A stretch of 62,541 nt of DNA from an uncultured Acidimicrobiia bacterium (GCA_964194965.1 CAXMQD010000251.1:1-62541); one strand, 5' to 3'; counted from the stretch's first letter, positions 20,042 through 41,685 are shown. The notes: generated from the letters alone by a model not told the origin. Translations and numbers: made by a program.

Positions 20042-20282
20042 GCGCCGCGCGCCAGATCCCGAGGCGCCCGCCAAAACGATTTGAGTTCCGAGCGCTTCCC
20101 GGCCGTCGTGCATGGCACGATCACCCTTCTCCTTCATGGAATCTGCCGTGAGGAGCGGATCGCGCCTGGAGAGTCGCAAACAAGCGAGCAATGCCGGGAA
20201 GCTTACGCCGAAAATCTTGGTAAGTCGTCTCTATGAGTCAATACTAAGAACCTTGGGTATGAGGACACGGGGAGGATCATCG

Positions 20283-22794: not shown

Positions 22795-22830
22795 GGCGCG
22801 GTGCTCCAAGGGAAGGTGATCGGATGGGAT

Positions 22831-23793: not shown

Positions 23794-23920
23794 GTTTTCT
23801 CCTTGGTCGCCAGGATTCGCGGCAAACAATCGCCGGGCATGACCACCGGGTCGCCGTAACTCCCAGTGATGCGTGGAGAGTGCTGATCCGACACGAGGAA
23901 CCGGACGTTCGGTTGTCCGG

Positions 23921-25063
23921 TCATGGTTTTCGGTTACTCATTGCGGAGGCTCTGTCTTGAGATCGATTCAGAGATGCGGCGAGGCTCACACCAAGCCCGG
24001 GCCGATCCGGCACCGGGATCCTGCCTGCCGTTGGCCTAAACGATTCGCCTGCGACGATCTCGTCAAAAAGCGGCGTTTCGTCGAACTGCATCTCCAGGAT
24101 GAGGAATCCGGATACCGCCGCGCTTACCTGGACGCTGTGGCCATGGCAGATCGGCCCCGAGGGATTGTGCGGCGAGCAGGCGACACCGCTGCGCTCCGCC
24201 AGCTCCGCGATCTCCAGCACCGTGGCGAGCCCGCCGGCGTACTTCACATCGGGCATTATCACGTCGTAGAGCCCGGCCTCGAGGAACGGCGCGAAGCCGG
24301 CAACGCCGGTCCGGAGCTCGCACCCGGCGGTGCGGATGCCTTTTCCGTTGGCCCGCGCGCGGAACTGGCGGATACGAGCAAATTCCGGTGTTTCCTCGGG
24401 AAACGGGCATTCGATCCAGTAGAGGCCGAGCGCCTCGGCCTCGGCCAGAAGCTGGTTGGCGGTCTCCGGCCCGAGCCGCCAGTGGCAGTCGACCAACAGC
24501 CGGGCGTCCCGGCCGATCGCCTGACGCACCGCGGCGATGCGGGCGAGACCGTCCGCCAGGAGTCGCCGGGCTTCGGCCGCCGGAGTGGCTGGCGTCAGCC
24601 GGTCGAAGGGCGCGATCTTGACCGCGTCGAACCCGGCGGCGCGGGCCAGCCCGGCGCTCGCCGCGAAACCCTCCGGCGTGCGATCCGTGGTGCGCCGGTT
24701 GACGTTGGCGTAGACCGCGACCTCGCTCAGAGGCTCGGCCGCCAGAAGCGCCGCCACCGGTTTTCCGGCGCGCTGGGCTTCGATGTCCCACAGGGCTTGA
24801 TCCAACCCGCATGCAACGGCGGTCTGCGCCAGGTCGCCCGACTCCCGCCACGACGCCGGGAGGCTCGCCACCGAAGCCGGGCGCCCCAGATGCTCCGGCC
24901 GCCAGCGCTCGAAGCACGCGCGTAGCGCGTCCTGCCGTCCGCCGAGCGTCGCCTCGCCCGTGCCGACCCGGCCATCGGAGGTCTCGACCTCGACGAACGT
25001 CCAGACGGTTTTGTCGGTGACGGTCAGCTCGTGCAAACGGAGCTCTGAGATCGATTCTGTCAT
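23921..25063 (-). CDS. Enolase-superfamily enzyme (second paralog-class member, dehydratase/cycloisomerase-like)
   Basis: 380 aa. 'WTFVEVETSDGRVGTGEA' is the capping domain. 'AVKIAPF', 'LLVDCHWR', 'YWIECP', 'AGCE' and 'DVKYAGG' form the barrel ligand pattern. Three overlapping Arg/Pro-rich ORFs in other frames are rejected. Confidence 0.8.
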   Translation of the reverse strand: MTESISELRLHELTVTDKTVWTFVEVETSDGRVGTGEATLGGRQDALRACFERWRPEHLGRPASVASLPASWRESGDLAQTAVACGLDQALWDIEAQRAGKPVAALLAAEPLSEVAVYANVNRRTTDRTPEGFAASAGLARAAGFDAVKIAPFDRLTPATPAAEARRLLADGLARIAAVRQAIGRDARLLVDCHWRLGPETANQLLAEAEALGLYWIECPFPEETPEFARIRQFRARANGKGIRTAGCELRTGVAGFAPFLEAGLYDVIMPDVKYAGGLATVLEIAELAERSGVACSPHNPSGPICHGHSVQVSAAVSGFLILEMQFDETPLFDEIVAGESFRPTAGRIPVPDRPGLGVSLAASLNRSQDRASAMSNRKP

Positions 25064-25148: not shown

Positions 25149-26246
25149 TCACACCACCCTTTCGGCGGTGGGGTCGAAGATGTGCATATTGTTCATGTTG
25201 ATGGTGAACGCCATGGTTTCGCCCACCGCGCTGACCGCCTTGGGCGCGGAACGGGCGCTGATCTCTATGCCGCCAAGTTCGATGATGACCATGGTGTCCA
25301 TGCCCATGGGCTCCAACACGTGGACCTCGGCCTCCAAGTCCAACTGGTTTTCGACCGTATGAACCTTGCGTTCGGTCAGGTGCTCCGGACGGATACCGAA
25401 TATCATATCCCTGCCGACGAAGGGACGGTAGCGGTCCTGATACCCGGTTGGGACCGGGAAGATCAGATCGTCGCCGATTCGCACGCCGACGCTCGAGCCA
25501 TTGGACTCCAGCCTGCAGGGCACGAAGTTCATGGCCGGCGAGCCGATGAAGCCGGCAACGAAGAAGGTGGCGGGCTCGTCGTACATTTGTTGGGGCGTGC
25601 CGACTTGCTCGATGATGCCGTCGTTCATGACCACGATGCGGTCCGCCAGGGTCATGGCTTCCACTTGGTCATGGGTGACGTAAACCACGGTCGTGCGCAC
25701 CCGGCGATGGATCTTCTTGATCTCGGTGCGCATTTGCACCCTGAGCTTGGCATCCAGGTTGCTCAAGGGTTCGTCGAACAGGAACACCTGGGGGTCGCGC
25801 ACGATGGCCCGGCCCATGGCGACCCGCTGACGTTGGCCACCGGAAAGCTGCTTCGGCTGCCGGTCGAGCAGCTCCGAGATGTTCAGAATCTCCGCGGCGT
25901 TGCGCACCCGCTGCTCGATCTCGTTCTTGGGTGTCCGGCGCAGCTTGAGCCCGAACGACATGTTATCGTACACGGTCATGTGAGGATAGAGGGCGTAGTT
26001 CTGGAACACCATGGCGATGTCCCGATCCTTGGGCGGCACGTCGTTGATCAGCCGCTCGCCGATGATAATCTCGCCGGAGGTAATCTCCTCCAGGCCGGCG
26101 ATCATGCGCAGTGTCGTGGACTTACCACAGCCCGATGGTCCAACCAGGACCACGAACTCGTTGTGGGCGATGTCCAGATCGATGCTCCGCACCGCCGGCT
26201 TATCGCCGTAAATTTTCTCCAGATCTTTTAGAATGATGCGGGCCAT
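25149..26246 (-). CDS. Sugar ABC transporter ATP-binding protein (MalK/UgpC-like, CUT1)
   Basis: Track ORF is 25149..26477. I prefer the ATG at 26246, giving '[44 protein letters not shown]'. Contains '[14 protein letters not shown]' and '[11 protein letters not shown]', plus a C-terminal MalK-type regulatory domain. Confidence 0.9.
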
Positions 26247-26311
26247 CGGGTCTCTTCCCTCGGTTCTACGCCTCGGTTTTCCGGACGTCTTGCCGGCGTT
26301 GCCATATACCG

Positions 26312-27763
26312 TCACACATAGATCGGTGCCTCGCCTGGCGCCGGCGTGTAGCCGGGCGAGCCTTGGGCGACGATGGCCTCTTGACCGCCGCCCGAGGCGA
26401 TGCGCAGGGCCTGATCCGCCTTGGCCTTCCGGTCGATCTCGTCCGGATCCAAAAGCGCGCGCAATGCCGATTCGCACGACGCCAACACCGCGCCATGGCT
26501 GGGGTCGCCGGCCAGATCGTTGAGCTCCTTCGGGTCGCTTTCCAGGTCGAACAGCTGGGCCGGGTAGTCCACGTGATGGACATATTTGTGGCGGCCCTTG
26601 CGAATCATGAAGCTCGCCGATTTGGCGCCCGCGCTATGCTGCTGGGACAAGATGACCCGGTCCGGCGTGGCGCCGTCGGCGAGCGCGAAGAGCGACGATC
26701 CGGGCAGGTCCCGATCTTCGTCGGTGGGCGCGACGCCGGTCGCCTCCAGGACGGTCGGAAAGATGTCCAATAGTTGGACCGGCGTCTCCACAACTCGGCC
26801 CGGCGGCAAGTCGGGGCCGGCCATGATCATGGGCACGCCTACTGACTCTTCGGTCATGTTGCACTTGCTGAACAAGCCCTTCTCGCCCATGGATTCGCCA
26901 TGGTCCGAGGAATAGATGATCCGCGTGTTTTCGGTCAGGCCGTTACGCTCGAGCGCCGTCATCAATTGACCGATGTTGTCGTCCAGATAGCTGATCATGC
27001 CCAGATAGGCGGCGGTCACCCGGCGCGCCGTGGCCTCGTCGAAGGGCTCCTCGATGCCGAAGAACCGGCGGAAGTCCTTGTAGGCGGGATGTTCCGGCCG
27101 CTGGTTCGGCCAATAAGCCTCGGGCCAGGGGATTTGGTCGTGCGGATAGAGGTCGTAGAACCGCTTGGGCGCGAGCCAGGGCGGGTGTGGACAGACCAGG
27201 GAGACGAAGGTGGCCCAGGGTTTATCGTTATGCTTGCCGGCTTCGTTGTCCAGCCAGTCGACCGCGCGGGCGGTGATCTGCCGGTCATATTCGGTGTAAG
27301 TCGATTCGCCGCCACCGGATTCGTTTACCAGCATCCTGAACTTGCGGGAGACCGGCATGGGATCGCGGATGATGGTGAACAGCATGCCCACCCCGCCGAT
27401 CACGTGGAGCGGCACAATCTCCTCGTCGAAGCCGTTGGGGTCCTCGGTGTCCCGATAGTGCAGCTTGCCGATGGAGGTGGCTCGATGGCCCTGGTCCATG
27501 AGCCGATGGCCCCAGGAGGGGGTCGTCCCGTGATAGGGCCGCGCGTTGTCCCAGATCTCGATCTCGTGCACGTGGCGCCCGGTCGCCAGACTGGCGCGCG
27601 AGGGAACGCAGATCGGGCCGTTGCAGTAGGCGTTTCGGAACAGCGTGCCTCTAGCCGCCAGGCGATCCAGGTTCGGGGTCAGGGCCACCGGATGACCGGC
27701 GCAGCCCATCGCCCGGCGGGTGTGCTGGTCGGAGAGAATAAACAGCATGTTCATAGGTTTCAT
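26312..27763 (-). CDS. Cys-type sulfatase, cytoplasmic, paralog group B
   Basis: Track ORF is 26312..27982. I prefer the ATG at 27763, giving '[25 protein letters not shown]'. Contains '[22 protein letters not shown]' and '[13 protein letters not shown]'. The C-terminal tail '[13 protein letters not shown]...[13 protein letters not shown]' is shared with four neighbours. Confidence 0.9.
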
Positions 27764-28007
27764 GGTGCGGACAGCCCCAAAAAAAAGATCTTGCCGAGCA
27801 GAGTCCTCCCGACCTCCTCGATCCCAGACCGTGGCAAGGGCACCATAAACCGGAGACCAGCGCAAGCTCGGAGCGCCACGAATCGGTCTTCGACCTTTCC
27901 CATGGGTGCCCACATGCGCTAGACAGGTAGGCGAAGGATCGAAGATCGTGTTATCCTGATGACGCGAACAATATCGGTCCAAAAATTACCGAGAGGGAGG
28001 ATTCACG

Positions 28008-29435
28008 ATGAAGATCGGCAAATTTATACCTGCTGGCTTGTTGGCTCTGACCGTAGGCACCGCGCCGGCCTCCGCCGAGGTCAACTGGCGCCAGTTCGAG
28101 GGCACGACGCTGAACATGCTCGGTTTCGCCGTCAGCTACATCGACGCCTGGTTCCGGCCCATGGCCAAGCAGTTCGAGAAGGAGACCGGCATCAAATTAC
28201 GCCTCGAGGTGCTGCAAGCCGGTCAGATGCGCAAGAAGCAGGACATCATGCTGGCCGGCGAGGACGAAACCCTCGACGTCATCATGCTGCAGATGGACAA
28301 CCGGGGCGGCAAGCTGACGCTGGCCGGGCATCTGGAGCCGCTGGAGTCCTACCTCGCCGATCCCAGCCTGACGCCAGCTGATTTCAACTATCCGGACGAC
28401 TGGCTCGGCGGATGTATCAACACCGAAAAGGTGATCAAGGGCCAGCCGCTCAACAACATCGTGTGGTCGGCCCAGGCACAGCTTCTGCACATTCGCACGG
28501 ACTTGTTCAAGAAGTACGGCGTCAAGGTGCCGACCACCATGGAAGAGCTGGAGGATGCCGCCAAGAAGCTCACCATCGACGAGGACGGCGACGGCAAGCC
28601 GGAGATCTACGGCTTCCTGTCGCGCGGCCACGGCCGGCTGACCACGGCCAGCTTCGCCTCCTATCTGTTCAACTTCGGCGGTTCCTGGTTCGTGACCAAT
28701 CCGGACGGCACCCGTGTCGCCAACATCAATTCGAAGGAATCGATCGACGCCTTCGAGTTCTATGGCCGCATGATTCGCGATTACGCGCCGACCTCGGCGC
28801 TTAACACCAAGCCGCCCCAAAACGCCGCGCTCTATGCCGCCGGCAAGGTGGCCATGCTGTCGGCGCTCAATTTCTGGCACTCCTTGGCCAGCGATCCCAA
28901 GAAGTCGCGCATCGCCGGCAATACCACCACCATTTTGGTTCCGGCCGGGCGCGCGGGCAGCTTTCCAAACCTGCCCACCACGTCGCTCGCCATCTCCAAG
29001 CATTCGGAAAAAAAGAAGGCGGCTTGGCTCTACATCGCCTGGATGACCCAAAAGCGCATCATGCTGAAGGGCCAGAACGCCGCGGTGCCCATGTGCCGGC
29101 GTTCGGTGTGGAACGATCCGTCCTACACGCCGCCGACCCCGGCCTGGGGCAAGTCGGCCGAGGTCGCCGCCGACTTCGGCATCGCCATCGCCAAACCACA
29201 GGCCATCGCCATCGGGCAGATGCGCGACGCGGCCGGCGAGATTATGAACGTGGCGATCCGTGACGGTTCCCGCGCCGCCATCCAGGCCGAGGCCGACAAG
29301 CAGGCCGCGTTCATGAACGAGCTCATGAAGAAGACCGAGAAGGGCGTCAACTTTGCCGGCGTGCTACCGGCCTTCGCCAAGAAGTTGACCATGGAGGATC
29401 AGTTGCTTCCGATCGAGGCCGAAGGCTTGAATTAG
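28008..29435 (+). CDS. Extracellular solute-binding protein family 1 (CUT1 sugar ABC SBP)
   Basis: 475 aa. Signal peptide 'MKIGKFIPAGLLALTVGTAPASA'. GAGGGAGG lies upstream. Divergent from the sulfatase/ATPase operon. Confidence 0.85.
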   Translation: MKIGKFIPAGLLALTVGTAPASAEVNWRQFEGTTLNMLGFAVSYIDAWFRPMAKQFEKETGIKLRLEVLQAGQMRKKQDIMLAGEDETLDVIMLQMDNRGGKLTLAGHLEPLESYLADPSLTPADFNYPDDWLGGCINTEKVIKGQPLNNIVWSAQAQLLHIRTDLFKKYGVKVPTTMEELEDAAKKLTIDEDGDGKPEIYGFLSRGHGRLTTASFASYLFNFGGSWFVTNPDGTRVANINSKESIDAFEFYGRMIRDYAPTSALNTKPPQNAALYAAGKVAMLSALNFWHSLASDPKKSRIAGNTTTILVPAGRAGSFPNLPTTSLAISKHSEKKKAAWLYIAWMTQKRIMLKGQNAAVPMCRRSVWNDPSYTPPTPAWGKSAEVAADFGIAIAKPQAIAIGQMRDAAGEIMNVAIRDGSRAAIQAEADKQAAFMNELMKKTEKGVNFAGVLPAFAKKLTMEDQLLPIEAEGLN

Positions 29436-29443
29436 GCCGAAAA

Positions 29444-29470
29444 CGCGGGAGGCCATTGCGGCCTCCCGCG
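29444..29470 (+). terminator. Intercistronic GC-rich stem-loop after the SBP gene (attenuator or mRNA-stability element)
   Basis: 11-bp perfect stem cgcgggaggcc / ggcctcccgcg with a 5-nt loop, 8 nt after the stop at 29435. The tail tgctcttc is T-poor, so it is not a canonical terminator. Confidence 0.4.
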
Positions 29471-29511
29471 TGCTCTTCATGTCGCCGCTCTCGGAGGAGG
29501 GGATCGAACCC

Positions 29512-30456
29512 ATGTCGAACCAGGCTCTCCCGCAAAGCCCCGCCGCCGCCGTCACGGTGAACGGTGGTCGCGCCGGCGCGCTGTTCGACTGGATCGACAG
29601 AAACCTGCCAATCGTCTTCAATATTCCCACGGTGGTGTTCTTGGCCGGGCTCATAGCCTTCCCGGTCGGGCTGGTGATCGTGACCAGCTTTAGCAACTGG
29701 CAGCTCATTACCAACCAGGAAGCTACGGCGGTCGGCCTGGAGAACTACATAAAAGTCTGGACCGACGAGCGGTGGCTCAGCGCCATCTGGCACACCTTCT
29801 ATTACGCCCTGGCGACGGTGGTCGGACAACTGGTCCTCGGCATGGCAACGGCGCTCTTGTTCAACCGCTCCTTCGCCGGAAAGGCGTTCTATCGCTCGAT
29901 CTGGATGATGCCCATGATCGCCATGTCCACGGCGATCAGCTTGGTGTGGATCCTGTTTTTCGACAACGCCTACGGGGTGCTCAACTATTCCCTGGAGCAC
30001 CTCGGCCTCGGTCCGATCGAATGGACCTCCAGTCCCGAATGGGCCATGCCGTCGCTGATTCTAGTCGGCATCTGGCACCACACGCCCTTCATGACCCTGA
30101 TTCTGCTGGCCGGTCTGCAGTCGCTGCCCATCGACCCCTTCGAGGCGGCGCGCATCGACGGCGCGTCGCGCTGGCAGATACTGATGCACATTACCCTGCC
30201 GTTGATGCAGGGCCATATCATCGTGGCGTTGATTCTGCGCTCGATATTCGCGGTCAAGGAGTTCGACACGATTCTAGCGATCACCGAGGGCGGTCCGCGC
30301 TACGCCACCGAGACGATGAATATGAACATCTATTTCAACGCCTTCGAATACGGCTACATGGGCGAGGCGGCGGCCAAGGGCGTCATATTCTTCGGCTTCA
30401 TTCTGTTGATCCAGGTGATCTTGGTAAAATTGAGAAAGCGGCAATGGTCGTACTGA
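29512..30456 (+). CDS. Sugar ABC transporter permease (MalF/UgpA-like)
   Basis: Track ORF is 29470..30456. I prefer the ATG at 29512 with GGAGGAGGGG upstream. Contains the EAA-type loop 'AARIDGASRWQILMHITLPLM'. Confidence 0.9.
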   Translation: MSNQALPQSPAAAVTVNGGRAGALFDWIDRNLPIVFNIPTVVFLAGLIAFPVGLVIVTSFSNWQLITNQEATAVGLENYIKVWTDERWLSAIWHTFYYALATVVGQLVLGMATALLFNRSFAGKAFYRSIWMMPMIAMSTAISLVWILFFDNAYGVLNYSLEHLGLGPIEWTSSPEWAMPSLILVGIWHHTPFMTLILLAGLQSLPIDPFEAARIDGASRWQILMHITLPLMQGHIIVALILRSIFAVKEFDTILAITEGGPRYATETMNMNIYFNAFEYGYMGEAAAKGVIFFGFILLIQVILVKLRKRQWSY

Positions 30457-31286
30457 AAAAGCTGTTATCCCGCCGGGGCTACAAGATCCTCGAGGCGCTG
30501 ACCACCCAGGTGATGATGATCGCCATTGTGGGGCCGTTCTTCTTTATTTTCTTCTTCATGTTTTGGAACTCGCTGAAGCCGGATTATCTGTTCTTCGAAC
30601 CGGGGACCTGGGTCTTCGAACCGATGTGGAGCAATTACATCGATGTCTATGAACAAAGCGATCTGGTGAGGAACATCGGCAACAGCCTTATCATCTCCAG
30701 CCTGGCGACCTTGATCGGATTGGCGTGTGGCTTGCTCACCGCCTATACGGTGGCGCGCTACGGTCTCCAGAAGCTCGCCATGGCGATCCTGCTGACTCGC
30801 ATGGTCCCCTATATCACCGCTCTGGTGCCGTTCTGGATCGTTTACAAACACGTGGGTCTGCTCAACACCTACACTGGACTGATCCTCTCCCATCTGGTGA
30901 TCACCATCCCCTTCGGGGTCTGGATCATGATCGGCTTCATCGAAGACATCCCGAAGGACCTGGAAGAGGCTGCCTGGATCGACGGCGCCTCGCGCACCCA
31001 GGCCTTCCTCAAGGTGGTCCTGCCGCTCGCCACGCCGGGCATGGTGGCCACGGCGATCCTCTGCTTCATCTTCTCCTGGAACAACTTCCAGTTGGCGCTG
31101 GTCCTGGGCGGTTTCGACGTCACCACGGCGCCGGTCTCGGTGTTCAAGTACGCCGATCCGGAGGCCGGCGGCAGCGGTCAGATGATGGCCGCGGCGACCA
31201 TGGTCACTATTCCGGTCTTCTTCATCGTGCTGGCGATCCAGAAGCAGCTCGCCGCCGGACTCACCGTGGGCGGCATCAGCAAGTAG
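30444..31286 (+). CDS. Sugar ABC transporter permease (MalG/UgpE-like)
   Basis: Only the C-terminal 280 aa of track ORF 29772..31286 is protein-like. The ATG at 30444 overlaps the upstream gene by 13 nt. Contains 'EAAWIDGASRTQAFLKVVLPLATPG'. Confidence 0.9.
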   Translation: MVVLKKLLSRRGYKILEALTTQVMMIAIVGPFFFIFFFMFWNSLKPDYLFFEPGTWVFEPMWSNYIDVYEQSDLVRNIGNSLIISSLATLIGLACGLLTAYTVARYGLQKLAMAILLTRMVPYITALVPFWIVYKHVGLLNTYTGLILSHLVITIPFGVWIMIGFIEDIPKDLEEAAWIDGASRTQAFLKVVLPLATPGMVATAILCFIFSWNNFQLALVLGGFDVTTAPVSVFKYADPEAGGSGQMMAAATMVTIPVFFIVLAIQKQLAAGLTVGGISK

Positions 31287-31296
31287 CGCGGCGGGA

Positions 31297-32793
31297 TCAG
31301 CCGTATCGGGCGGATTGTCCGGGAGGCGGCGTGTAGACGATAGTGCCTTGTTTGGCGATCGCCTCGGTTCCGCCATGGCGCTCGGCCTGGGCCCGCTGGT
31401 CGGCTTTGGCACGGGCGTCCACCGCCTCGGGGTCGACGAAGGCGCGCAGCGCCGATTCCAGGTCCCGGTCCCGGCCATCGGCGGTGCCTTCGGCGACCCG
31501 GTCGTGGGCCTCGATGGGGTCGGCCTCCAGGTCGTAGAGCTGGCTGGCCATGCCGACGTGGTAAATCAGCTTGTCGGCCCCGTCCCGCCACAGGAACCCA
31601 CCGGCTCGGGAGGCCGAGGCATGGAACTCGGCGAAGCCGACGCGGGGCGTTTCCCGCCCGGTCATGGCCGGCCACAGTGAGATGCCCGGCAAATCCCGGT
31701 CCTCCGCCTCCTGGGTCACGCCGGCTCCCTCTAGGATGGTGGGGAAGAGATCCACCGCCGAGGCGATCTGATCCACCGCGCGCCCGGCCGGGATACCGGG
31801 CCCCGCCGCGATCAGTGGCACCCGTACCGCCGGTTCCATCAAGTGGTTCTTGCCGAAGAGGCCGTGATGCCCATAGCTCTCGCCGTGGTCGGAGGTGTAG
31901 ATCACCCGGGTATCGCCCAAGAGATCGAGCCGCTCCGCCGCCGCCATGACTTGGCCGATCTGTTCGTCCAGATGGGTGACCAGGGCGAAGTAGCCGGCGG
32001 CGATGCGCCTCAAGACCGCTTCGTCGTCCATGGTCTGGAACAGCTTCAGCTTGCGGATGTGCTCCAGGGCCGGGTGGCGCGGCATTTCGTCGGGGCGGAA
32101 CAGCACCGGTAAGGGGATCCGGTCGTGGGGGTAGAGATCGTAAAGCCGCTGGGGCACCAGGAACGGCGGGTGCGCGCTCACATAGGAAACCAGCAGCACC
32201 CAGGGCGCGGTCTGGCCGGCCGCCTCTTGCTCCAGCCAGGCGATGGCCTCGCGGGTGATCTCCCGGTCGTAGTCTTGGTACTCGCTCTCGCCAACGCCGG
32301 AGCGCTCCCAATAAAGCTCCCACTGGCCCGGCATGGCCGGTTGCTCGCCGCTCCAGCGCAACAAACCGGTCAAGCCGCCGATTCCGTCGACGATATGCAT
32401 GGGCACGATCTCTCGGACGAAGCCGTTGTCGTCTTCGGTGCTCCGGTAATGCAGCTTGCCGATCGAGACGGTCGGATGGCTTCGTTCCTTCAGCCGGTGG
32501 CCCCAGCTCGCCACCCGCCCGTCGTAGGCGATGCTGTTGTCCCAATACCCGGTTTGATGGGGATAGCGCCCGGTGGCGAGGCTGGCCCGGGCCGGACAGC
32601 ACAAGGGGCTGGCCGAGTAGGAATTGGCGAAGCGTGCGCCCCGGGCCGCGATCTGGTCCAGGTTCGGGGTCTGCACGACCGGATGCCCATAGCAGCCGAG
32701 CAGGTCGCCGGTGTGGTTGTCCGACAGGAAGAAGATGAGGTTTGCAGGCTTGGTCATGGGTCCGTTCGGTGATTCATTACTCCCAGACATCAT
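31297..32793 (-). CDS. Cys-type sulfatase, cytoplasmic, paralog group A
   Basis: 498 aa (alternative start at 32757, 'MTKPANLIFFLSDNH'). Contains '[22 protein letters not shown]' and 'YTSDHGESYGHHG', with the tail 'DPEAVDARAKADQ...VYTPPPGQ'. Confidence 0.9.
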   Translation of the reverse strand: MMSGSNESPNGPMTKPANLIFFLSDNHTGDLLGCYGHPVVQTPNLDQIAARGARFANSYSASPLCCPARASLATGRYPHQTGYWDNSIAYDGRVASWGHRLKERSHPTVSIGKLHYRSTEDDNGFVREIVPMHIVDGIGGLTGLLRWSGEQPAMPGQWELYWERSGVGESEYQDYDREITREAIAWLEQEAAGQTAPWVLLVSYVSAHPPFLVPQRLYDLYPHDRIPLPVLFRPDEMPRHPALEHIRKLKLFQTMDDEAVLRRIAAGYFALVTHLDEQIGQVMAAAERLDLLGDTRVIYTSDHGESYGHHGLFGKNHLMEPAVRVPLIAAGPGIPAGRAVDQIASAVDLFPTILEGAGVTQEAEDRDLPGISLWPAMTGRETPRVGFAEFHASASRAGGFLWRDGADKLIYHVGMASQLYDLEADPIEAHDRVAEGTADGRDRDLESALRAFVDPEAVDARAKADQRAQAERHGGTEAIAKQGTIVYTPPPGQSARYG

Positions 32794-32884
32794 AGGGCAA
32801 ATCGGCTGCGACGGGAACGGCCCGGACTGATATACTAAGACCCGAACGCAAATCCCAGAGTCCTTCGCCGACGACGAGACGATC

Positions 32885-34342
32885 GTGCCCTTGAAGCCGC
32901 AAAACCTTCTGTTCCTGCTGTCCGATCAGCATTCGAGAAAGGCCCTTGGTTGTAGCGGCCATCCGTTGGTGCGAACCCCCAACCTGGACCGCCTGGCCGC
33001 GCGCGGTACCCGGTTCCGCAACGCCTATTGCAACTCGCCGATCTGCGTGCCCTCCCGTGCCAGTTTGGCGACGGGCCGCTACGTCTTCGACATCGGCTAC
33101 TGGGACAACGCCAGGCCGTATGAAGGCTCCGCGCCGTCTTGGGGACACCGGCTCGCCCATCACGGCCATCGGGTGGAGTCTATCGGCAAGCTCCATTTCC
33201 GCTCGACCGCGGATCCGACCGGATTCGCCGAGCAGCACCTTCCCATGCACGTGGTCGGCGGCGCGGGCGACCTCCTTGGCTCGCTCCGGGACGGCACCGC
33301 GATGCTCGCCAAGTATCGGGGCTATCACGAGAACGCGGGCCCGGGGGAATCCACCTATACCGCCTACGACCGGAAAATCACGGCCGCGGCCGTCGACTGG
33401 CTGGGCAACCAGGCGCCCCGATATCAAGACCGGCCCTGGGTGCTGTTCGCCTCCCTGGTCTGTCCGCACCCGCCGTTGTTGGCGCCGGCGGCTTTTTACG
33501 CGCTCTATCCGCCGGACCGGATGCCGTGGCCGACCGACCATGACCCCGGCCGGCGCCCGGAACATCCGGCTCTGGGTGATCTTCGCCGCTTCATGGGCAT
33601 CGACGAACCATTCTCCGAGGACGTGGTGCGCCGCTCGATCTCGGCCTATTTCGGACTTTGCAGCTTCCTGGACGACAACCTGAGCCAGATCCTGGACGCG
33701 CTCGAGGCGTGCGGTCTGGCCGAGACCACTCGGGTCATATATTCCAGCGACCACGGTGAATCCAACGGCAACCAGGGCCTCTGGGGCAAGAGCAACATGT
33801 ACGAAGACTCCGCCGGGGTGCCGCTGATCGTGGCCGGGGAGGGAGTGCCCGAAGGGCTGACCGTGAACACGCCGGTCTCTTTGGTCGACGTTTACCCCAG
33901 CGTTCTGGATTGCGTCGGTCTCGAGCGGCTGGACGACGATCGCCATCTGCCCGGTCGCTCGCTGTTCGATCTGGCCGCGGGCGCCGACCCGGAGCGTCTG
34001 GTGTTCGGCGAGTTCCACGCCGCCGCCTCCAACACCGGGATCTTCATGGTGCGGCGGGGCGATATGAAGTACGTCCATTACGTGGGCTACCCGCCCCAAC
34101 TCTTCGACCTGGCCGAGGATCCGGAGGAGACCGCCGATCTGGCCGCCGACCCGGCCTACGACCAGGTACGCGAGGATCTGGATCGCGTGCTTCGGGAAAT
34201 CGTCGATCCCGAGGCGGTCGATGCCCGGGCCAAGGCCGACCAGGCGGCGCGCATCGCCGCGGCGGGGGGCCGGCGGGCGATCCTGGAGAAGGGCTCCTTC
34301 GGCTACACCCCGGCGCCGGGCGAAGCCGCGGTCTATCGTTAG
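32885..34342 (+). CDS. Cys-type sulfatase, cytoplasmic, paralog group B
   Basis: 485 aa, GTG start. Starts 'MPLKPQNLLFLLSDQHSRKALGCSGHP'. Contains '[22 protein letters not shown]' and '[13 protein letters not shown]', with the tail 'DPEAVDARAKADQ...[13 protein letters not shown]'. Confidence 0.9.
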   Translation: MPLKPQNLLFLLSDQHSRKALGCSGHPLVRTPNLDRLAARGTRFRNAYCNSPICVPSRASLATGRYVFDIGYWDNARPYEGSAPSWGHRLAHHGHRVESIGKLHFRSTADPTGFAEQHLPMHVVGGAGDLLGSLRDGTAMLAKYRGYHENAGPGESTYTAYDRKITAAAVDWLGNQAPRYQDRPWVLFASLVCPHPPLLAPAAFYALYPPDRMPWPTDHDPGRRPEHPALGDLRRFMGIDEPFSEDVVRRSISAYFGLCSFLDDNLSQILDALEACGLAETTRVIYSSDHGESNGNQGLWGKSNMYEDSAGVPLIVAGEGVPEGLTVNTPVSLVDVYPSVLDCVGLERLDDDRHLPGRSLFDLAAGADPERLVFGEFHAAASNTGIFMVRRGDMKYVHYVGYPPQLFDLAEDPEETADLAADPAYDQVREDLDRVLREIVDPEAVDARAKADQAARIAAAGGRRAILEKGSFGYTPAPGEAAVYR

Positions 34343-34350
34343 GTGGGACC

Positions 34351-35850
34351 ATGACCGCGCCCCGCAACCTGGTCTACTTCCAATCCGACAACCACAACCG
34401 GTCGTACCTGGGCTGCTACGGTCATGGTTTGGCGCGGACCCCGGTGCTCGACCGCATCGCGGGCCGGGGCGTTCGCTTCGCCAATGCCTATGCGGCCAGC
34501 GCGCTCTGCTGCCCGGCCCGGGCCAGCCTGGCCACCGGCCGCTATCCGCATCAGACCGGCTATTGGGACAACGCCATCGTTTATGACGGCCGAGTGCCGA
34601 GCTGGATGCACCGCCTGCGCGGCCAGGGCCACCATGTGGCCTCCGTCGGCAAACTGCACTACCGCTCCAGCGAAGACGACAACGGATTTTCCGAGGAGCT
34701 CCTTCCCATGCACATCTTGGGCGCAAAGGGCGGGGTTTCCATGCTGCTACGAGCCATCGACGGCGAACCGGAGAACCTGGGGCAGTGGCAGCTCTATTTG
34801 GAGAAATCCGGCGTCGGCGAGACGCAATATCAGGACTTCGACCGAAAGATCAGCGACCGGGCGATCCGCTGGCTCCGGGAGGACGGCCGGGGCCGGGGCC
34901 GAGACCGGGACCGGGACCGTCCCTGGGTCTTGCACGTCTCCTACGTGAGCCCCCATCCGCCGTTCCTGGTGCCCAAGCGCCTGCTCGAGCTTTTTCCCCC
35001 GGACCAGATCGACTTGCCGCCCCTGTCCTCACCCGAGGCCCGCCCGGACCATCCGGCACTCCGGCATTTGAGAAGGGTGATGGCTTGGGGCGATCTTCGA
35101 CCCGAGGATCTGCGGCGAATCGGCGCCGGTTATCTGGCGCTGATCGCCCACCTCGACGAGCAGGTCGGGCGGGTCATGGCGGCGCTGGAGGACCTGGGGC
35201 TGCTGGAGACGACCCGGGTCCTCTACACCAGCGACCATGGCGAGATGGCGGGTTCTCACGGGCTCCTGGGCAAGTGCAACCTCTATGAGGGCGCCATCGG
35301 CGTGCCCCTGCTGATCGCCGGACCCGAGGTTCCGGCCGGCCGGGTCGTCACCGAGAATGTCTCCCACGTGGACCTCTTCCCGACTCTGGTAAAAGGCGCG
35401 GGCGGCCAGCTCTTGGACCAGGACGCCGACCTGCCGGGCCGCTCCCTCTGGCCTGCCGTTGCCGGCGACGACCGGGCGCGCGGGGTTTTTGCCGAGTACC
35501 ACGCGGCCGGCTCCCGCGCTGGCGCCTTCATGGTGCGGGACGGTCACATGAAACTGATCTATTACGTGAATCTGCCGCCACAACTATTTTGTCTTCTGAA
35601 CGATCCCCAGGAAACTCGCGACCTGGCCCCGGACCCAGACCAGCGGGACACCCTGGCCCGGCTCGAAGGCCTGTTGCGCGCCATATGCGATCCCGAAGCC
35701 GTGGACCGGCGCGCCAAGGCCGATCAGCGGGCCAAGATGGACCACTGGGGCGGAGCCGAGGCGATCAAGGCCGAGGGGATGCTCGTCTACACCCCGCCGC
35801 CGGGCGCGGACCCGGATATCCAAGGCCGCACCGGCGAGACGTCAGGCTAA
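34351..35850 (+). CDS. Cys-type sulfatase, cytoplasmic, paralog group A, with Arg/Asp low-complexity insertion
   Basis: Only the part of track ORF 33910..35850 from the ATG at 34351 (AGGTGGGA upstream) is sulfatase-like. Starts 'MTAPRNLVYFQSDNHNRSYLGCYGHG'. Contains '[22 protein letters not shown]' and 'YTSDHGEMAGSHG'. Confidence 0.9.
   Translation: MTAPRNLVYFQSDNHNRSYLGCYGHGLARTPVLDRIAGRGVRFANAYAASALCCPARASLATGRYPHQTGYWDNAIVYDGRVPSWMHRLRGQGHHVASVGKLHYRSSEDDNGFSEELLPMHILGAKGGVSMLLRAIDGEPENLGQWQLYLEKSGVGETQYQDFDRKISDRAIRWLREDGRGRGRDRDRDRPWVLHVSYVSPHPPFLVPKRLLELFPPDQIDLPPLSSPEARPDHPALRHLRRVMAWGDLRPEDLRRIGAGYLALIAHLDEQVGRVMAALEDLGLLETTRVLYTSDHGEMAGSHGLLGKCNLYEGAIGVPLLIAGPEVPAGRVVTENVSHVDLFPTLVKGAGGQLLDQDADLPGRSLWPAVAGDDRARGVFAEYHAAGSRAGAFMVRDGHMKLIYYVNLPPQLFCLLNDPQETRDLAPDPDQRDTLARLEGLLRAICDPEAVDRRAKADQRAKMDHWGGAEAIKAEGMLVYTPPPGADPDIQGRTGETSG
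34886..34921 (+). repeat. In-frame hexanucleotide-like tract (GGCCGG/GACCGG units) encoding GRGRGRDRDRDR
   Basis: The tract ggccggggccggggccgagaccgggaccgggaccgt lies inside the 34351 sulfatase. The closest paralog (31297) has 'EQEAAGQTAPWVLL' where this gene has 'EDGRGRGRDRDRDRPWVLH'. Confidence 0.6.
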
Positions 35851-35881
35851 GTGCCGCCGATCTCCGGCAGGGGCCGGCCGA

Positions 35882-37336
35882 TCAGTCGAAGAGCGGCGCC
35901 TGTCCCGGCGCCGGCGTATAACCGAAGTCGCCGCGGGTCCGGATCGCCTCAAGCCCGCCGTTGGCCTCGATACGGGCCTGCTGGTCGCGGAACGCGCGCT
36001 CGTTGACCGCTTCCGGATCGAGGATAGCGCGCAGCTTGGCCTCGCACTGCGCGACGACGCCTCGGTGATCCACGCTGGTGCCCAGGTCGCGGGCCTCCCG
36101 GGGATCGGCCTCCAGGTCGAAGAGCTGGGGGACCTCGCCCACGTAGTGGACGTACTTCCATTTGCCGTCGCGGATCATGAAGAATCCCGTGGACGAGCCT
36201 GCCGCGTGGTATTCGCTCAGCACCGTGCGCTCGGGTCTCTCGCCGGCGGCCATGCGCAGCAGCGAGTGCCCGGGCATGTGATGTTGCTCCTCTTCGGTGA
36301 GCGCGAGACCGGCACCTTCCAGGATCGTCTGGTGGCAATCGACCAGGGAGACCGGCTCGGCCACAACATGGCCCGCCGGCACATCTGGACCGGCCAGGAT
36401 CATGGGTATCTTGGCCGCTTCCTCGTACATCACCGATTTGCCCCAAAGACCTCGGTGGCCGATATTGTCGCCGTGGTCGGAGGTGTAAAGGATGCGCGTG
36501 GTTTCGTTGTGGCCATTGGCTTTGAGCGCATCGAGCACCAGGCCGATGTTGTGATCCAGCAGCGAGACCATGCCGAAATAGGCCGAGCGCGCGACCCGGA
36601 CCGTCTGGTCGTCGAAATAGGGGTCGTAGGCCAGCACCTGACTTAAAGTCTCGATCACCGGGTGGGTCGGCCGCTCGTCGCGACCGTAGAATCGCGGCCA
36701 AGGCAGGGAGTCCGGCGGATAGAGGTCGTAATATTCCTGCGGCGCGATCAGCGGGAAATGCGGCAGCACGAAACCGACGAACAACACCCACGGTCGGTCG
36801 CCGTATTTGGGCGCCTCTTCGGCGAGCCAGCGGCGGGCCTCTTCGGCGGTGCTGGCGTCGTAGCGGATATAAGTGGAATCGCCGGGTCCGGATTGCGCCG
36901 CGAGCTGCTTGGCGCCGCCGCGCTCTACGAGGTCCCGGCGCTCCAGCCCGAGCAGATCGCCCAGGCCGTCCACGACGTTGAGCGTGTCGATCTCATGGGT
37001 GAAGCCGTTGGCGTCCTCGGAGTCGCGATAGTGCAGCTTTCCGATCGCGGTCACCTCGTGGCCGGCATCGATTAACCGCTGCCCCCAGCCCTGCGGGTCG
37101 CCGGTGTAGGGATGGGCGTTGTCCCAATTGCCGATCTGGTGGACGTAGCGCCCCGTCGCCAGGCTCGCCCGGGCCGGCACGCAGATCGGGCAGTTGGTAT
37201 AGGCCTGATCGAAGCGCGTGCCGCCGGCGGCCAGACTGTCAAGAACCGGAGTCCGCACGATGGGGTCTCCGTAACAGCCCGTGATCTCCTGAGTGTGCTC
37301 GTCAGAAAAAATGAACAGCAGATTCCTTGGTGTCAT
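35882..37336 (-). CDS. Cys-type sulfatase, cytoplasmic, paralog group B
   Basis: 484 aa. Starts 'MTPRNLLFIFSDEHTQEITGCYGDP'. Contains '[22 protein letters not shown]' and 'YTSDHGDNIGHRG', with the tail 'DPEAVNERAFRDQ...GYTPAPGQAPLFD'. Confidence 0.9.
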   Translation of the reverse strand: MTPRNLLFIFSDEHTQEITGCYGDPIVRTPVLDSLAAGGTRFDQAYTNCPICVPARASLATGRYVHQIGNWDNAHPYTGDPQGWGQRLIDAGHEVTAIGKLHYRDSEDANGFTHEIDTLNVVDGLGDLLGLERRDLVERGGAKQLAAQSGPGDSTYIRYDASTAEEARRWLAEEAPKYGDRPWVLFVGFVLPHFPLIAPQEYYDLYPPDSLPWPRFYGRDERPTHPVIETLSQVLAYDPYFDDQTVRVARSAYFGMVSLLDHNIGLVLDALKANGHNETTRILYTSDHGDNIGHRGLWGKSVMYEEAAKIPMILAGPDVPAGHVVAEPVSLVDCHQTILEGAGLALTEEEQHHMPGHSLLRMAAGERPERTVLSEYHAAGSSTGFFMIRDGKWKYVHYVGEVPQLFDLEADPREARDLGTSVDHRGVVAQCEAKLRAILDPEAVNERAFRDQQARIEANGGLEAIRTRGDFGYTPAPGQAPLFD

Positions 37337-37560: not shown

Positions 37561-38289
37561 TTAACGCTTGTTGGCTTGTCGCCAGGCTTTGAACTTTACC
37601 TGCGTTTCTTCCATCGTTGCCGGGTAAAGTCCGACGATGGATTCACCCTTCAGCACTTGTTCTTCGACAAAATCTTCAAAAGCTGTCATCTCGTGCGCTT
37701 CTTTGGTGATGTCGTTGGCCATGTGGGCGGGGATGACGACAACGCCTTCACCATCGCCAACGACGATGTCGCCCGGGAATACCGGCGCGTCACCACACCC
37801 TATTGGCACGTTAATATCAACGGCGCGGTGCAGGGTCAGGTTAGTCGGCGCGGACGGACGATTATGGTAAGCCGCGAACGGCAGCTCCGCGATGGTTGGG
37901 GAATCCCGAAAACCACCATCTGTGACAATACCCGAAACACCGCGTTTCATCAGGCGGGTGATCAGAATGCTGCCGGCTGACGCGGCGCGCGCGTCCTTGC
38001 GGCTGTCGATAACCATGACATGACCGGGCGGACAATCTTCCACCGCTTTGCGCTGCGGATGGGCTGGGTCCCTGAAAACCTCGATACTGTCCAGGTCTTC
38101 ACGCGACGGCATATAACGCAGGGTAAAGGCTTCGCCGACCATATTGTCTTTCTGAGGGCCGACCGGCCGGACATCCTGGATGAACATGTTCTTGAGTCCG
38201 CGTTTGAACAGTGCCGTCGACAGGGTTGCGGTGCTGACGTGTGCGAGCCGCGCGCGGTTCTCGGCGCTCAATGTTTCAGTCATAGCCAA
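37561..38289 (-). CDS. RraA-family protein (HMG/CHA-aldolase-like; candidate 2-keto-3-deoxy-acid aldolase)
   Basis: 242 aa. 'GHVMVIDSRKDARAASAGSILITRLMKRGVSGIVTDGGFRD' matches the RraA/dimethylmenaquinone-methyltransferase fold signature. It is 20 nt downstream of the IlvD/Edd gene. Confidence 0.8.
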   Translation of the reverse strand: MAMTETLSAENRARLAHVSTATLSTALFKRGLKNMFIQDVRPVGPQKDNMVGEAFTLRYMPSREDLDSIEVFRDPAHPQRKAVEDCPPGHVMVIDSRKDARAASAGSILITRLMKRGVSGIVTDGGFRDSPTIAELPFAAYHNRPSAPTNLTLHRAVDINVPIGCGDAPVFPGDIVVGDGEGVVVIPAHMANDITKEAHEMTAFEDFVEEQVLKGESIVGLYPATMEETQVKFKAWRQANKR

Positions 38290-38309
38290 TTTTCTCCGCT
38301 TTTCGATCG

Positions 38310-40049
38310 TCAGAATATATCTGGTTCAGGGACCCGATTGCCAAAATCTGTCGTCAGGAAATCAAAATCGCAACCATCTTGGGCCTGGCCGATATGCTGC
38401 GAAAACATGAAACCGTAACCCCTTTCATATCGCGCGGGCGGTGGGACCAACTGTGCCCGGCGGTCGTTCAATTCCTGGTCACTCAGTTCCATCTGGATCA
38501 GGCGTTTCTCCACATCGACGATCACGATATCTCCGGTTCGGATCAGCGCCAAAGGTCCGCCGACGTAGGATTCGGGAGCTACATGCAAAACACAGGCGCC
38601 ATAACTGGTGCCGCTCATGCGGGAATCGGATATCCTCATCATGTCGCGCACGCCCTGCTTCACCAGCTTTTTCGGAATCGGCAACATGCCCCATTCGGGC
38701 ATGCCCGGCCCGCCTTCGGGGCCGGCGTTGCGCAGGATTAGGATCGTATCCGGCGTCGCGGCAAGGTCTTCATCGTCAATGGCTGCTTTCATGGTCGGGT
38801 AATCGTCAAACACCAGCGCCGGGCCGGAATGTTTGAGGAATCGTTTGTCGAGCGCCGACACTTTCATCACGCAGCCGTCGGGTGCAAGGTTACCTTTCAG
38901 CACGACCAATGCCCCAGACTCGTATATCGGATTGTCCAAGTTTCGGATGACGTCGTCATTATAGACTTTCGCATCCGCGAGATGCTCGCCAACCGGTTTG
39001 CCGCTGACCGTCAGACACGCTGTATCTAGATAAGATTCGATCCGCTTCAACATCGCCGGCAGGCCCCCAGCGTAGTAGAAATCTTCCATCAAGTAGGTGT
39101 CGCCGTTGGGGCGGATGTTGGCAATGACCGGGACCTCGCGCCCGATCCTGTCGAAATCGTCCAACCCGATATCGAACCCGGCGCGCCGGCCCATTGCGAC
39201 CAAATGGATAATGGCATTGGTCGAACAACCCATCGCCATGGCGGCGACGATGCTGTTTTCAAAAGACTTTCGAGTCAGGATATCGCTGGGCTTCAGGTCT
39301 TCCCACACCATTTCGACAATGCGCCGCCCGGTTCTGGCAGCCAATCTCTTGTGGTTGGAATCCGGCGCCGGGATGGAGGCACCGCCGGATAAGACAAGTC
39401 CCAGACTTTCGGCGATGGAGGTCATGGTGCTGGCCGTTCCCATGGTCATGCAATGGCCGTAGGATCGGGAAATACCTCGCTCTATTTCGGACCAGTCATC
39501 GTTGGTGATATTGCCCGCCCGAAGTTCATCCCAGTATTTCCACGTGTCCGATCCGCTGCCCAGCGGCGCCCCTTTCCAGTTGCCACGCAACATCGGCCCC
39601 GCTGGGAAAAAGATCGTCGGTACGTCCATGGAAATCGCGCCCATCAGCAATCCCGGCGTGGTTTTATCGCAGCCGCCCATGAGAACGGCGCCGTCGACCG
39701 GGTGAGAACGGATCAGTTCCTCACATTCCATCGCCAGGAGATTTCGATACAGCATGGTCGTCGGTTTGACGAAAGTTTCCGCCAACGAGATCGCGGGAAG
39801 TTCCAGGGGGAACCCTCCCGCCTGCAGAACGCCGCGCTTGATCGTATCGATGCGCTGTTTGAAATGCGCATGGCAGGGATTGAAATCGGACCAGGTGTTG
39901 ATGATGCCGATGACCGGCTTACCCATCCAGTCCTCCGCATCGTAGCCCATCTGCATGGCGCGCGAGCGATGCCCGAAGGCACGAATGTCTTCGGTTCCGA
40001 ACCAGCGTGCGCTACGCAGATCTTCGTATTTTCTACTTTTTGTTGTCAC
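38310..40049 (-). CDS. IlvD/Edd-family sugar-acid dehydratase
   Basis: Track ORF is 38310..40079 (TTG). The GTG at 40049 has GGAGG 5 nt upstream. Contains 'LRSARWFG', 'PVIGIINTWSDFNPCHAHF' and 'GGCDKTTPGLLMGA' (Fe-S cluster Cys). Confidence 0.9.
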   Translation of the reverse strand: MTTKSRKYEDLRSARWFGTEDIRAFGHRSRAMQMGYDAEDWMGKPVIGIINTWSDFNPCHAHFKQRIDTIKRGVLQAGGFPLELPAISLAETFVKPTTMLYRNLLAMECEELIRSHPVDGAVLMGGCDKTTPGLLMGAISMDVPTIFFPAGPMLRGNWKGAPLGSGSDTWKYWDELRAGNITNDDWSEIERGISRSYGHCMTMGTASTMTSIAESLGLVLSGGASIPAPDSNHKRLAARTGRRIVEMVWEDLKPSDILTRKSFENSIVAAMAMGCSTNAIIHLVAMGRRAGFDIGLDDFDRIGREVPVIANIRPNGDTYLMEDFYYAGGLPAMLKRIESYLDTACLTVSGKPVGEHLADAKVYNDDVIRNLDNPIYESGALVVLKGNLAPDGCVMKVSALDKRFLKHSGPALVFDDYPTMKAAIDDEDLAATPDTILILRNAGPEGGPGMPEWGMLPIPKKLVKQGVRDMMRISDSRMSGTSYGACVLHVAPESYVGGPLALIRTGDIVIVDVEKRLIQMELSDQELNDRRAQLVPPPARYERGYGFMFSQHIGQAQDGCDFDFLTTDFGNRVPEPDIF

Positions 40050-41496: not shown

Positions 41497-41685
41497 GAGA
41501 AGTCCGGAATGCCGTAGGTCAAGCAACACATCATAGCCCGAGAATAGCGAAGCCGGGCAATCATCGAATGACCGCTGGCCATTGTCACGTAATCTGGACT
41601 GGCCGGCAGGCGGGATGGATTTTAAACTGGTTCGATGCGCCACGGGCCTTGAAAACCAAATTATTCAACGGGAGGAATTAACACC

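Follow-up and report, generated by a model that had tools for sequence, protein, structure and literature searches.

A cluster of five related sulfatase genes surrounds the genes of an ATP-binding cassette (ABC) sugar importer on a contig of an uncultured Acidimicrobiia bacterium (GCA_964194965.1, CAXMQD010000251.1:1-62541). The whole stretch of 62,541 nucleotides was analyzed and is referred to as the window. On balance, the cluster is probably a conserved module for the catabolism of a small solute of the carbohydrate type with variable sulfation, i.e. a mono- or disaccharide, a polyol or a sugar acid. The evidence lies in the identity and location signals of the proteins, the recurrence of the gene set in other genomes, the age of the paralogues and the loss of the residues by which choline sulfatase holds its substrate.

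Sulfatases

The five sulfatases, named A1, A2, B1, B2 and B3 (Table 1), all match PF00884 (131-162 bits against a Pfam cutoff of 25; E 1e-38 to 1e-47) and can be aligned along their entire length. The CxPxR formylglycine motif and the catalytic residues are kept in each of them, and D12, C52, R56, N73, K100, H102, H193, D287-H288 and K300 are invariant. The active site separates group A (A1 and A2, CCPAR) from group B (B1 to B3, CVP[SA]RASLATGR...), and a C-terminal tail, DP...A..DQ...GG..AI...G...YTP.PG, is invariant in all five. Pairwise identity amounts to 50-58% among B1, B2 and B3, to 59% for A1 versus A2 and to 45-50% for pairs of an A and a B enzyme. The two other sulfatases of the window, Sulf996 and Sulf6124, share only 30-36% identity with the five. 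Spacers are very short, with 8 nt between B2 and A2, 31 nt between A2 and B3, and also 10 nt between permease B and A1. A first-pass annotation, made from the sequence by a model, had listed the five genes, the two active-site subtypes, the common tail and the short spacers, and all were confirmed.

The same annotation had described the enzymes as cytoplasmic. The first beta-strand of the fold begins 4-17 residues after the start in all five, which leaves no room for a signal peptide. Only 18 (B2) and 11 (B3) in-frame codons lie between the upstream stop and the start. In B1 and A1, the reading frames upstream are longer but include no hydrophobic stretch resembling a signal. Because the sulfatases lack a signal peptide and the binding protein of the importer carries a Sec signal, the former are predicted to be cytoplasmic and the latter system to be binding-protein dependent. 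An AlphaFold model of B1, calculated from the five-sequence alignment, reached a pLDDT of 63, too low for a fold search or an assessment of the tail.

Transport system

The importer belongs to the CUT1 type. It comprises an exported SBP_bac_1 binding protein, two permeases of the MalF/MalG type and a MalK/UgpC ATPase with a C-terminal OB/TOBE region. Binding protein, permeases and divergently encoded MalK-like ATPase are present as first annotated, and the assignment to CUT1 is supported by Pfam and NCBIfam matches, the signal peptide and a structural comparison with Foldseek. The ATPase passes the NCBIfam model of the UgpC subfamily (515 bits, cutoff 432). Permease A shows NCBIfam similarity to GlcT, UgpA and MalF. 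Both permeases stay far under the UgpA and UgpE cutoffs, and the binding protein has no match to any NCBIfam model. For permease B, gene calls are also available from the comparative loci L001-L006; an alternative start exists.

The binding protein is preceded by the Sec signal peptide MKIGKFIPAGLLALTVGTAPASA, which begins with MKIGKF and ends with ASA before the cleavage site; the mature protein starts with EV. An AF2 model of the protein reached a pLDDT of 86. Its top Foldseek matches were 5iai, 6dtq, 1eu8, 4rya and SmoF, with query-normalized TM-scores of 0.67-0.76. In sequence as well as in fold, the protein thus resembles CUT1 proteins that bind sugars, polyols and oligosaccharides. Its structural neighbors include binders of maltose, trehalose, beta-glucosides and sulfoquinovosyl-glycerol; 4rya is annotated for sorbitol, and 5iai is an EFI target protein of Agrobacterium radiobacter. 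The model thus supports a carbohydrate-type ligand. All tblastn matches of the binding protein among the PLSDB plasmids were at most 33% identical, so that no annotated close relative is present on cultured plasmids.

The 244-nt region between the divergent genes of B1 and the binding protein presumably acts as a bidirectional promoter and control region. No Rfam family and no match to the sigma-70 consensus were found in it. An Rfam scan of the entire window yielded no family at threshold, and sigma-70 promoter and terminator sites between 21.4 and 40.3 kb were no more frequent than expected by chance. The repeats in three intergenic regions were weak inverted repeats only, with no clear operator. 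In the loci L014 and L031, a LysR gene occupies the place of this divergent region.

Associated enzymes

Three further genes continue the strand of B1 and the ATPase. MR2, an aldo-keto reductase (AKR) and MR1 complete the run B1-ATPase-MR2-AKR-MR1, with gaps of 65, 85, 91 and 21 nt. The arrangement is compatible with one leftward operon, which is likely. The boundary first drawn around the cluster (25149-37336) was too narrow, as the run extends through MR2, AKR and MR1 to position 21613. The nine genes named in the first-pass annotation are present, while the abutting enolase-superfamily, AKR, RraA-like and IlvD-type genes had been omitted. Its statement that glycoside hydrolases, lyases, TonB receptors and regulators are missing between 21.6 and 40 kb agrees with the Pfam scans of the open reading frames (ORFs), in which none was found.

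MR1, the last gene of the run, encodes a putative acid-sugar dehydratase. Its best PDB match is 4hcd/1rvk (149 bits). No NCBIfam equivalog was reached (best 108 bits, cutoff 500). K179-x-H181, D211, E238, E266 and H316, corresponding to metal ligands and catalytic positions, are invariant across 15 homologues. A literature search on the function of the closest structure (Atu3453, 1rvk, 4hcd) gave nothing usable. The AKR is a candidate aldose 1-dehydrogenase or reductase; its best PDB match, the L-galactose dehydrogenase 9w6y, is weak (74 bits). MR2 resembles galactonate and mannonate dehydratases, and its membership of the enolase superfamily was checked at the domain level only. Its best NCBIfam equivalog, galactonate dehydratase, gave 149 bits and stayed under the cutoff of 311. 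The NCBIfam equivalogs for galactonate, mannonate, fuconate, rhamnonate, talarate/galactarate and arabinonate were reached by neither MR1 nor MR2. An identity of either enzyme as 3,6-anhydrogalactonate cycloisomerase or L-fuconate dehydratase is unsupported: these names are absent among the PDB matches at E <= 1e-20, many of which carry generic names only.

In the loci L033 and L034 (5954-9179), an enzyme of the MR1 family (66% identical) directly follows a TauD-family dioxygenase and a 2-oxoglutarate (2OG)-Fe(II) oxygenase. This context could also involve sulfate-ester or sulfonate chemistry.

Conservation of the gene cluster

The binding-protein family is compact. It comprises 131 proteins at E <= 1e-20, mostly with more than 50% identity, and the identical protein occurs on seven metagenome contigs with unchanged gene order. 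An orthologue of the binding protein was located at 40 independent loci among GTDB genomes and JGI metagenomes. The genome loci belong to Rhodospirillales, Hyphomicrobiaceae, Geminicoccaceae, SAR324, a Deltaproteobacterial metagenome-assembled genome (MAG), Entotheonella and a cultured Mycoplana, and among the Gammaproteobacteria to Immundisolibacterales, Ectothiorhodospiraceae and a Station ALOHA MAG. Relatives are mostly marine and sponge-associated MAGs, the latter including Entotheonella and APA_bin.

The synteny search proposed with the first-pass annotation showed that the array of transporter and sulfatases recurs. Within the sequence available for each locus, at least one sulfatase of the clade formed by the five window enzymes is present in 26 of the 40 loci. 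MR1 occurs in 11 of the 40 (60-69% identical), usually directly after permease B, an AKR in six (L014, L028, L045, L047, L048, L050; 34-40%) and an MR2-like enzyme in four (L028, L047, L048, L050; 35-37%). In some Gammaproteobacteria, MR1 is linked to the transporter more tightly than any sulfatase. Next to the transporter, the number of clade sulfatases varies from 0 to 5 among genomes, with as many as three sulfatases of the other types in addition; L017 and L018 have no clade sulfatase, but other sulfatases at the same position. This variable number fits a substrate family with variable sulfation, which had already been suggested for the cluster.

Two Rhodospirillales MAGs (L007 and L027) contain the five sulfatases in the order of the window, L007 additionally with an upstream SMP-30 lactonase and a LysR regulator. 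A Gammaproteobacterial MAG (L028) and a metagenome contig (L048) have the same gene set in a different arrangement: AKR, MR2-like enzyme, three sulfatases of the Sulf6124 and Sulf996 types, ATPase, B1, binding protein, permeases, B2, A2 and MR1. The left part of this arrangement is seen in L047 and L050, which end early on the right. Because the same set travels together in different arrangements, a functional coupling of AKR, MR2, MR1, sulfatases and transporter is argued for. In the cultured soil isolate Mycoplana sp. BE70 (L026), a Sulfotransfer_2 gene (8848-9588) is divergent from a minimal cluster of binding protein, two permeases, sulfatase and ATPase.

Age of the paralogues

A neighbor-joining tree of 41 sulfatases from the loci was rooted on choline sulfatase. 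It resolves the orthogroups B1, B2, B3, A1 and A2, in each of which one paralogue of the window groups with orthologues from other genomes. Together, the five orthogroups form one clade apart from the Sulf996 and Sulf6124 types. B1 is the most widely retained orthogroup, with 10 genome loci in the tree and B1-best matches in further metagenome loci. The A1 orthogroup unites the window with L007, L027 and L019, and the B3 orthogroup the window with L007 and L027 only. B2 includes the Gammaproteobacterial L014, L016 and L028, and A2 includes L016 and L028. Gammaproteobacterial members are found in B1, B2 and A2. Orthologues, including those of Alpha- and Gammaproteobacterial MAGs, share 62-73% identity, in comparison to 45-59% among the paralogues. 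The cluster had been described as a local expansion, which is wrong. The duplications are old, since each paralogue clusters with orthologues of other genomes, including Gammaproteobacteria. Judged from the tree and the identities, the array is an old and maintained set of distinct enzymes that did not arise by recent expansion at this site.

Relation to choline sulfatase

Choline-O-sulfatase (COSe) is the best match of the five sulfatases in NCBIfam and the PDB (6fny, 6g5z, 7pth). A single sequence scores 197 bits and a profile 278 bits, with an alignment that covers almost the full length. In the SulfAtlas classification, choline sulfatase constitutes subfamily S1_12 (PMC5066984). The conserved tail of the five enzymes begins at the same position as the C-terminal extension of COSe, which in the Sinorhizobium meliloti enzyme (SmeCOSe) enters the active site of the neighboring subunit (PMC9063841). 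The formylglycine Cys and the equivalents of Asn75, His201 and Lys309 of COSe are the consensus in every orthogroup of the 41-sequence alignment (His201 with a frequency of 0.8 in A2).

SmeCOSe binds choline in a clamp of Trp129 and His145, together with Tyr123 and Trp142/143, and is gated by Asn146 (PMC9063841). Read from the profile alignment and the 41-sequence alignment, these positions are replaced across the five orthogroups: Tyr123 by I/V, Trp129 by D/M/G, position 142 by G/R/T, position 143 by K/A/Q, His145 by R/K/E/A and the gate Asn146 by G/Q/L/D. Position 129 is D in B2 and B3, M in B1 and G in group A. Position 143 is K in B1 and B2, A in B3 and Q in group A, and position 145 is R in B2, K in B3 and E in group A. 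Most replacements are fixed per orthogroup, and several positions of B1 and A1 are variable (145 in B1, 129 in A1). The pattern is the one expected of enzymes with a common chemistry and a differing recognition of the leaving group. The basic residues of group B and the acidic residue of group A may reflect bound substrates that differ in charge.

The resemblance to choline sulfatases noticed in the first-pass annotation therefore stands in part. S1_12 is the closest characterized relative, but an identity as choline sulfatase was rejected: the clamp is absent, all five proteins (242.8-292.1 bits) miss the cutoff of 433.45 for the choline sulfatase equivalog TIGR03417, and betI, betB and betA, encoding BetI, betaine aldehyde dehydrogenase and choline dehydrogenase, were not found in ORF scans of the window. 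Close relatives in the 90%-identity protein cluster of B2 are named 'choline-sulfatase' by JGI. Given a score under the cutoff for the equivalog and the loss of the choline clamp, this name is best regarded as an over-annotation.

Proposed pathway and other explanations

In the proposed pathway, the periplasmic binding protein would capture the solute, and the CUT1 importer would carry it into the cell without loss of its sulfate esters. In the cytoplasm, as many as five formylglycine sulfatases would then strip sulfate groups, either at different positions or on a range of related substrates, using a common catalytic core and orthogroup-specific residues where choline sulfatase holds the leaving group. 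The desulfated skeleton would enter an oxidative, non-phosphorylative sugar-acid route via AKR, MR1 and MR2. The genes would be expected to be co-regulated.

Several observations weigh against this pathway. Scans of the ORFs throughout the 62.5-kb window yielded no FGE-sulfatase or radical-SAM maturase (anSME) domain; a maturation enzyme may be encoded elsewhere in the genome. The main cluster contains no regulator, and no kinase or aldolase occurs as a conserved partner. MR1 belongs to a large family (1915 matches), whose members also accompany TauD/2OG oxygenases or TRAP transporters in places where no sulfatase occurs. The complete genome L011/L030 encodes binding protein, two permeases and MR1, with no sulfatase within 10 kb. 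Binding-protein homologues with 58-64% identity (L020, L025, L053-55, L057) have no sulfatase neighbors; the neighbors of the orphan binding protein in L020 were uninformative. The RraA-like and IlvD genes next to B3 possibly belong to the module, which is uncertain because they are not conserved beside the transporter in other genomes.

A function in sulfur scavenging, by which sulfate would be harvested from organic sulfate esters under sulfate limitation without carbon catabolism, is quite unlikely. The layout of cytoplasmic Cys-type sulfatase and ABC importer is that of AtsA/AtsRBC in Pseudomonas, and LysR-type regulators adjoin related clusters. However, the transporter is of the CUT1 sugar type and not of the SsuA/TauA type, the gene run is closely packed with the carbon-catabolic enzymes MR1, AKR and MR2, and five specialized paralogues appear excessive for this purpose. 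Sulfate is abundant in seawater, and scavenging seems needless for relatives that are mostly marine or sponge-associated. That the sulfatases chiefly hydrolyze mono- or diesters of phosphate or phosphonate, supplied by organophosphate import, is very improbable. Such a role would agree with the UgpC (glycerol-3-phosphate) subfamily of the ATPase and with weaker matches to the phosphonate monoester hydrolases 2w8s, 2vqr and 4upk. These hydrolases reach about 160 bits in the profile comparison, in contrast to 278 bits for COSe; the permeases miss the UgpA and UgpE cutoffs by far, the binding protein matches no NCBIfam model, and no phosphate-regulon genes are present.

A non-carbohydrate sulfate ester as substrate is unlikely. 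In its favor, the closest characterized enzyme is choline-O-sulfatase. An osmolyte like choline-O-sulfate, a sulfated amino-alcohol or the sulfated head group of a host lipid or sterol have been considered. CUT1 transporters also carry glycerol-3-phosphate and sulfoquinovosyl-glycerol, and many relatives originate from sponge-associated MAGs (Entotheonella, APA_bin). Against such a substrate stand the replacement of the choline clamp (Tyr123, Trp129, Trp142/143, His145) in all five sulfatases and the lack of betA, betB and betI nearby. Moreover, the conserved partners are enzymes of the acid-sugar type, and the structural neighbors of the binding protein are sugar and polyol binders.

A wider claim is rather doubtful, namely that the module defines an uncharacterized pathway, widespread in the sea, for a small sugar, polyol or sugar acid that is multiply sulfated, with five new position-specific specificities of cytoplasmic sulfatases and an MR1 acting on a sulfated acid sugar. 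If it were true, the compound could be released by sponges, corals or algae, MR1 might eliminate beta-sulfate instead of water, and the five specificities would branch next to choline sulfatase.

Other genes in the window

A second module (13-9733) contains, besides a LysR regulator and the sulfatases Sulf996 and Sulf6124, an importer of the Opp/Dpp type with an SBP_bac_5 binding protein, two permeases and two oligo_HPY ATPases (Pfam). Homologues of Sulf996 and Sulf6124 (51-63% identical) adjoin the ATPase, B1 and the binding protein in L016, L028, L047, L048 and L050, and B1 and the binding protein in L045. Because both sulfatase types lie within the L028/L048 arrangement, the second module is tied to the same theme and is probably linked to the main cluster.

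The region 10225-14800 encodes a DmsABC-like molybdopterin oxidoreductase with a catalytic subunit (Fe4S4 and molybdopterin), a 4Fe-4S subunit and a DmsC-like anchor. A luciferase-like monooxygenase, an AMP-binding enzyme, a formyltransferase, a 349-aa protein without family match and an amidase follow (15022-21566). Conservation of the 349-aa protein and the amidase together with the cluster is limited to L039, a near-identical contig. A link of the luciferase-like monooxygenase and AMP-binding genes (15-17.7 kb) to the neighbors of the Entotheonella binding protein was rejected, as the genes are not homologous.

On the right side, the RraA-like protein and the L-arabinonate dehydratase are followed by a Gfo/Idh/MocA oxidoreductase and an FAH-family protein. 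None of the genes of this region (37561-43503) is conserved beside the transporter elsewhere; they resemble a non-phosphorylative pentose or aldonate route of the Weimberg/Dahms type. A GC-rich ORF (40594-41643) without family match contains 3.2 copies of a 24-nt tandem repeat (40654-40731) encoding PPLTGPMI-type repeats and may not be a real gene. The minus-strand ORF 43693-45400 contains a 12-nt tandem repeat (44259-44293). Its product is probably secreted (MKYTRRLLVAAVVLLSLANG...), has a proline-rich stretch and lacks a Pfam match. The region 48031-62541 begins with a Liv-type ABC transporter (branched-chain amino acid family), followed by a LacI regulator. It further comprises two Gfo/Idh/MocA oxidoreductases, two xylose-isomerase-like TIM-barrel proteins, a short-chain dehydrogenase/reductase, enzymes like 3-hydroxyisobutyrate dehydrogenase and the start of a thiamine pyrophosphate-dependent enzyme. 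This set looks like inositol or sugar catabolism.

Table 1. Positions of the sulfatase and transport genes and of associated features in the window
Feature	Position	Strand	Evidence and remarks
LysR regulator	13-954	-	Pfam; second module (13-9733)
Sulfatase Sulf996	996-2549		Pfam; N-terminus MSSDRPNILWY..., no signal peptide
Sulfatase Sulf6124	6124-7743		Pfam; N-terminus MTNKPNILLI..., no signal peptide
MR1, enolase superfamily (mandelate racemase subgroup), putative acid-sugar dehydratase	21613-22809	-	MR_MLE_N and MR_MLE_C; start of gene callers 22794 (393 aa)
AKR, candidate aldose 1-dehydrogenase or reductase	22831-23829	-	PF00248
MR2, second enolase-superfamily enzyme, resembling galactonate/mannonate dehydratases	23921-25063	-	MR_MLE Pfam; PDB 3rr1, 4ggb
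ABC ATPase, MalK/UgpC type, C-terminal OB/TOBE	25149-26246	-	PF00005, PF17912, PF08402
Sulfatase B1 (CVPSR)	26312-27763	-	PF00884, alignment, tree; core sulfatase, divergent from the binding-protein gene
Intergenic region B1/binding protein, presumed bidirectional promoter/control region	27764-28007	.	244-nt gap
Periplasmic solute-binding protein, CUT1, SBP_bac_1, 475 aa	28008-29435	+	Pfam
Permease A (MalF/UgpA-like)	29470-30456	+	PF00528; start of gene callers 29479 (locus L001)
Permease B (MalG/UgpE-like)	30444-31286	+	PF00528; 280-aa call, 13-nt overlap with permease A
Sulfatase A1 (CCPAR)	31297-32793	-	PF00884; start of gene callers 32757 (486 aa)
Sulfatase B2 (CVPSR)	32885-34342	+	PF00884
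Sulfatase A2 (CCPAR)	34351-35850	+	PF00884; starts 8 nt after B2
Sulfatase B3 (CVPAR)	35882-37336	-	PF00884; convergent with A2
RraA-like aldolase-family protein	37561-38289	-	Pfam; upstream of B3
IlvD-type L-arabinonate dehydratase	38310-40079	-	Pfam; NCBIfam equivalog 1051 bits, cutoff 882

Comparison with known systems

A search of the literature for cytoplasmic sulfatases with an ABC importer, for sulfatases of sponge symbionts and for clusters of sulfatase and mandelate racemase found no description of the module. COSe (BetC) of Sinorhizobium meliloti resembles the five enzymes in being cytoplasmic and of the Cys-type formylglycine class, in the residues of the sulfate site and in the start of the C-terminal extension. 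It differs in its aromatic choline clamp, its location in the bet operon and its occurrence as a single enzyme; here, five paralogues are partnered with a transporter of the CUT1 sugar type. The ats system of Pseudomonas aeruginosa and Pseudomonas putida likewise pairs a cytoplasmic Cys-type S1 sulfatase, AtsA, with a binding-protein-dependent importer for sulfate esters, AtsRBC. However, the purpose of that system is to scavenge sulfur when sulfate is scarce. It relies on an SsuA/TauA-like binding protein and handles aromatic substrates, and its one S1_4 sulfatase has no linked carbon-catabolic genes.

Among the carbohydrate sulfatases characterized so far, most belong to polysaccharide utilization loci (PULs) of Bacteroidota and are secreted or located in the periplasm. 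Such a locus likewise combines uptake genes, there for a sulfated glycan, with a number of sulfatases that differ in specificity. PULs differ in their SusC/SusD or TonB components, their glycoside hydrolases or lyases and their secreted or periplasmic sulfatases; here, none of these is present, and desulfation would be cytoplasmic. ORF scans of the window revealed no SusC/SusD pair with secreted CAZymes, and the contrast to the PUL logic drawn in the first-pass annotation is thus upheld.

The ats2 cluster of Bifidobacterium breve UCC2003 enables the use of GlcNAc-6-sulfate with an intracellular sulfatase and is alike in that a sulfated monosaccharide freed by others enters the cell unaltered and loses its sulfate there (PMC7326374). 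It differs in its single sulfatase, the lack of enolase-superfamily partners and its Gram-positive gut host. The ats2 sulfatase is matured by anSME, and the transporter is of a different type.

The proposed strategy of importing first and desulfating inside is conserved in Alpha- and Gammaproteobacteria, SAR324 and Deltaproteobacterial MAGs, and the binding protein occurs also in Entotheonella. It suggests that the sea and sponge hosts contain a pool of small sulfated metabolites, the turnover of which has not yet been described. One binding protein, five sulfatase orthogroups and two orphan enolase-superfamily enzymes form a tractable set, which could assign new sulfatase specificities. The comparison also flags a systematic mis-annotation, as public pipelines call close homologues 'choline-sulfatase'. 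Cytoplasmic sulfatases fed by an importer were already known from BetC, the GlcNAc-6-sulfate sulfatase of B. breve and AtsA of Pseudomonas. New in the present module are the five conserved S1_12-like orthogroups without choline clamp, their coupling to a CUT1 importer and orphan enolase-superfamily enzymes, and the wide distribution in marine and host-associated bacteria.

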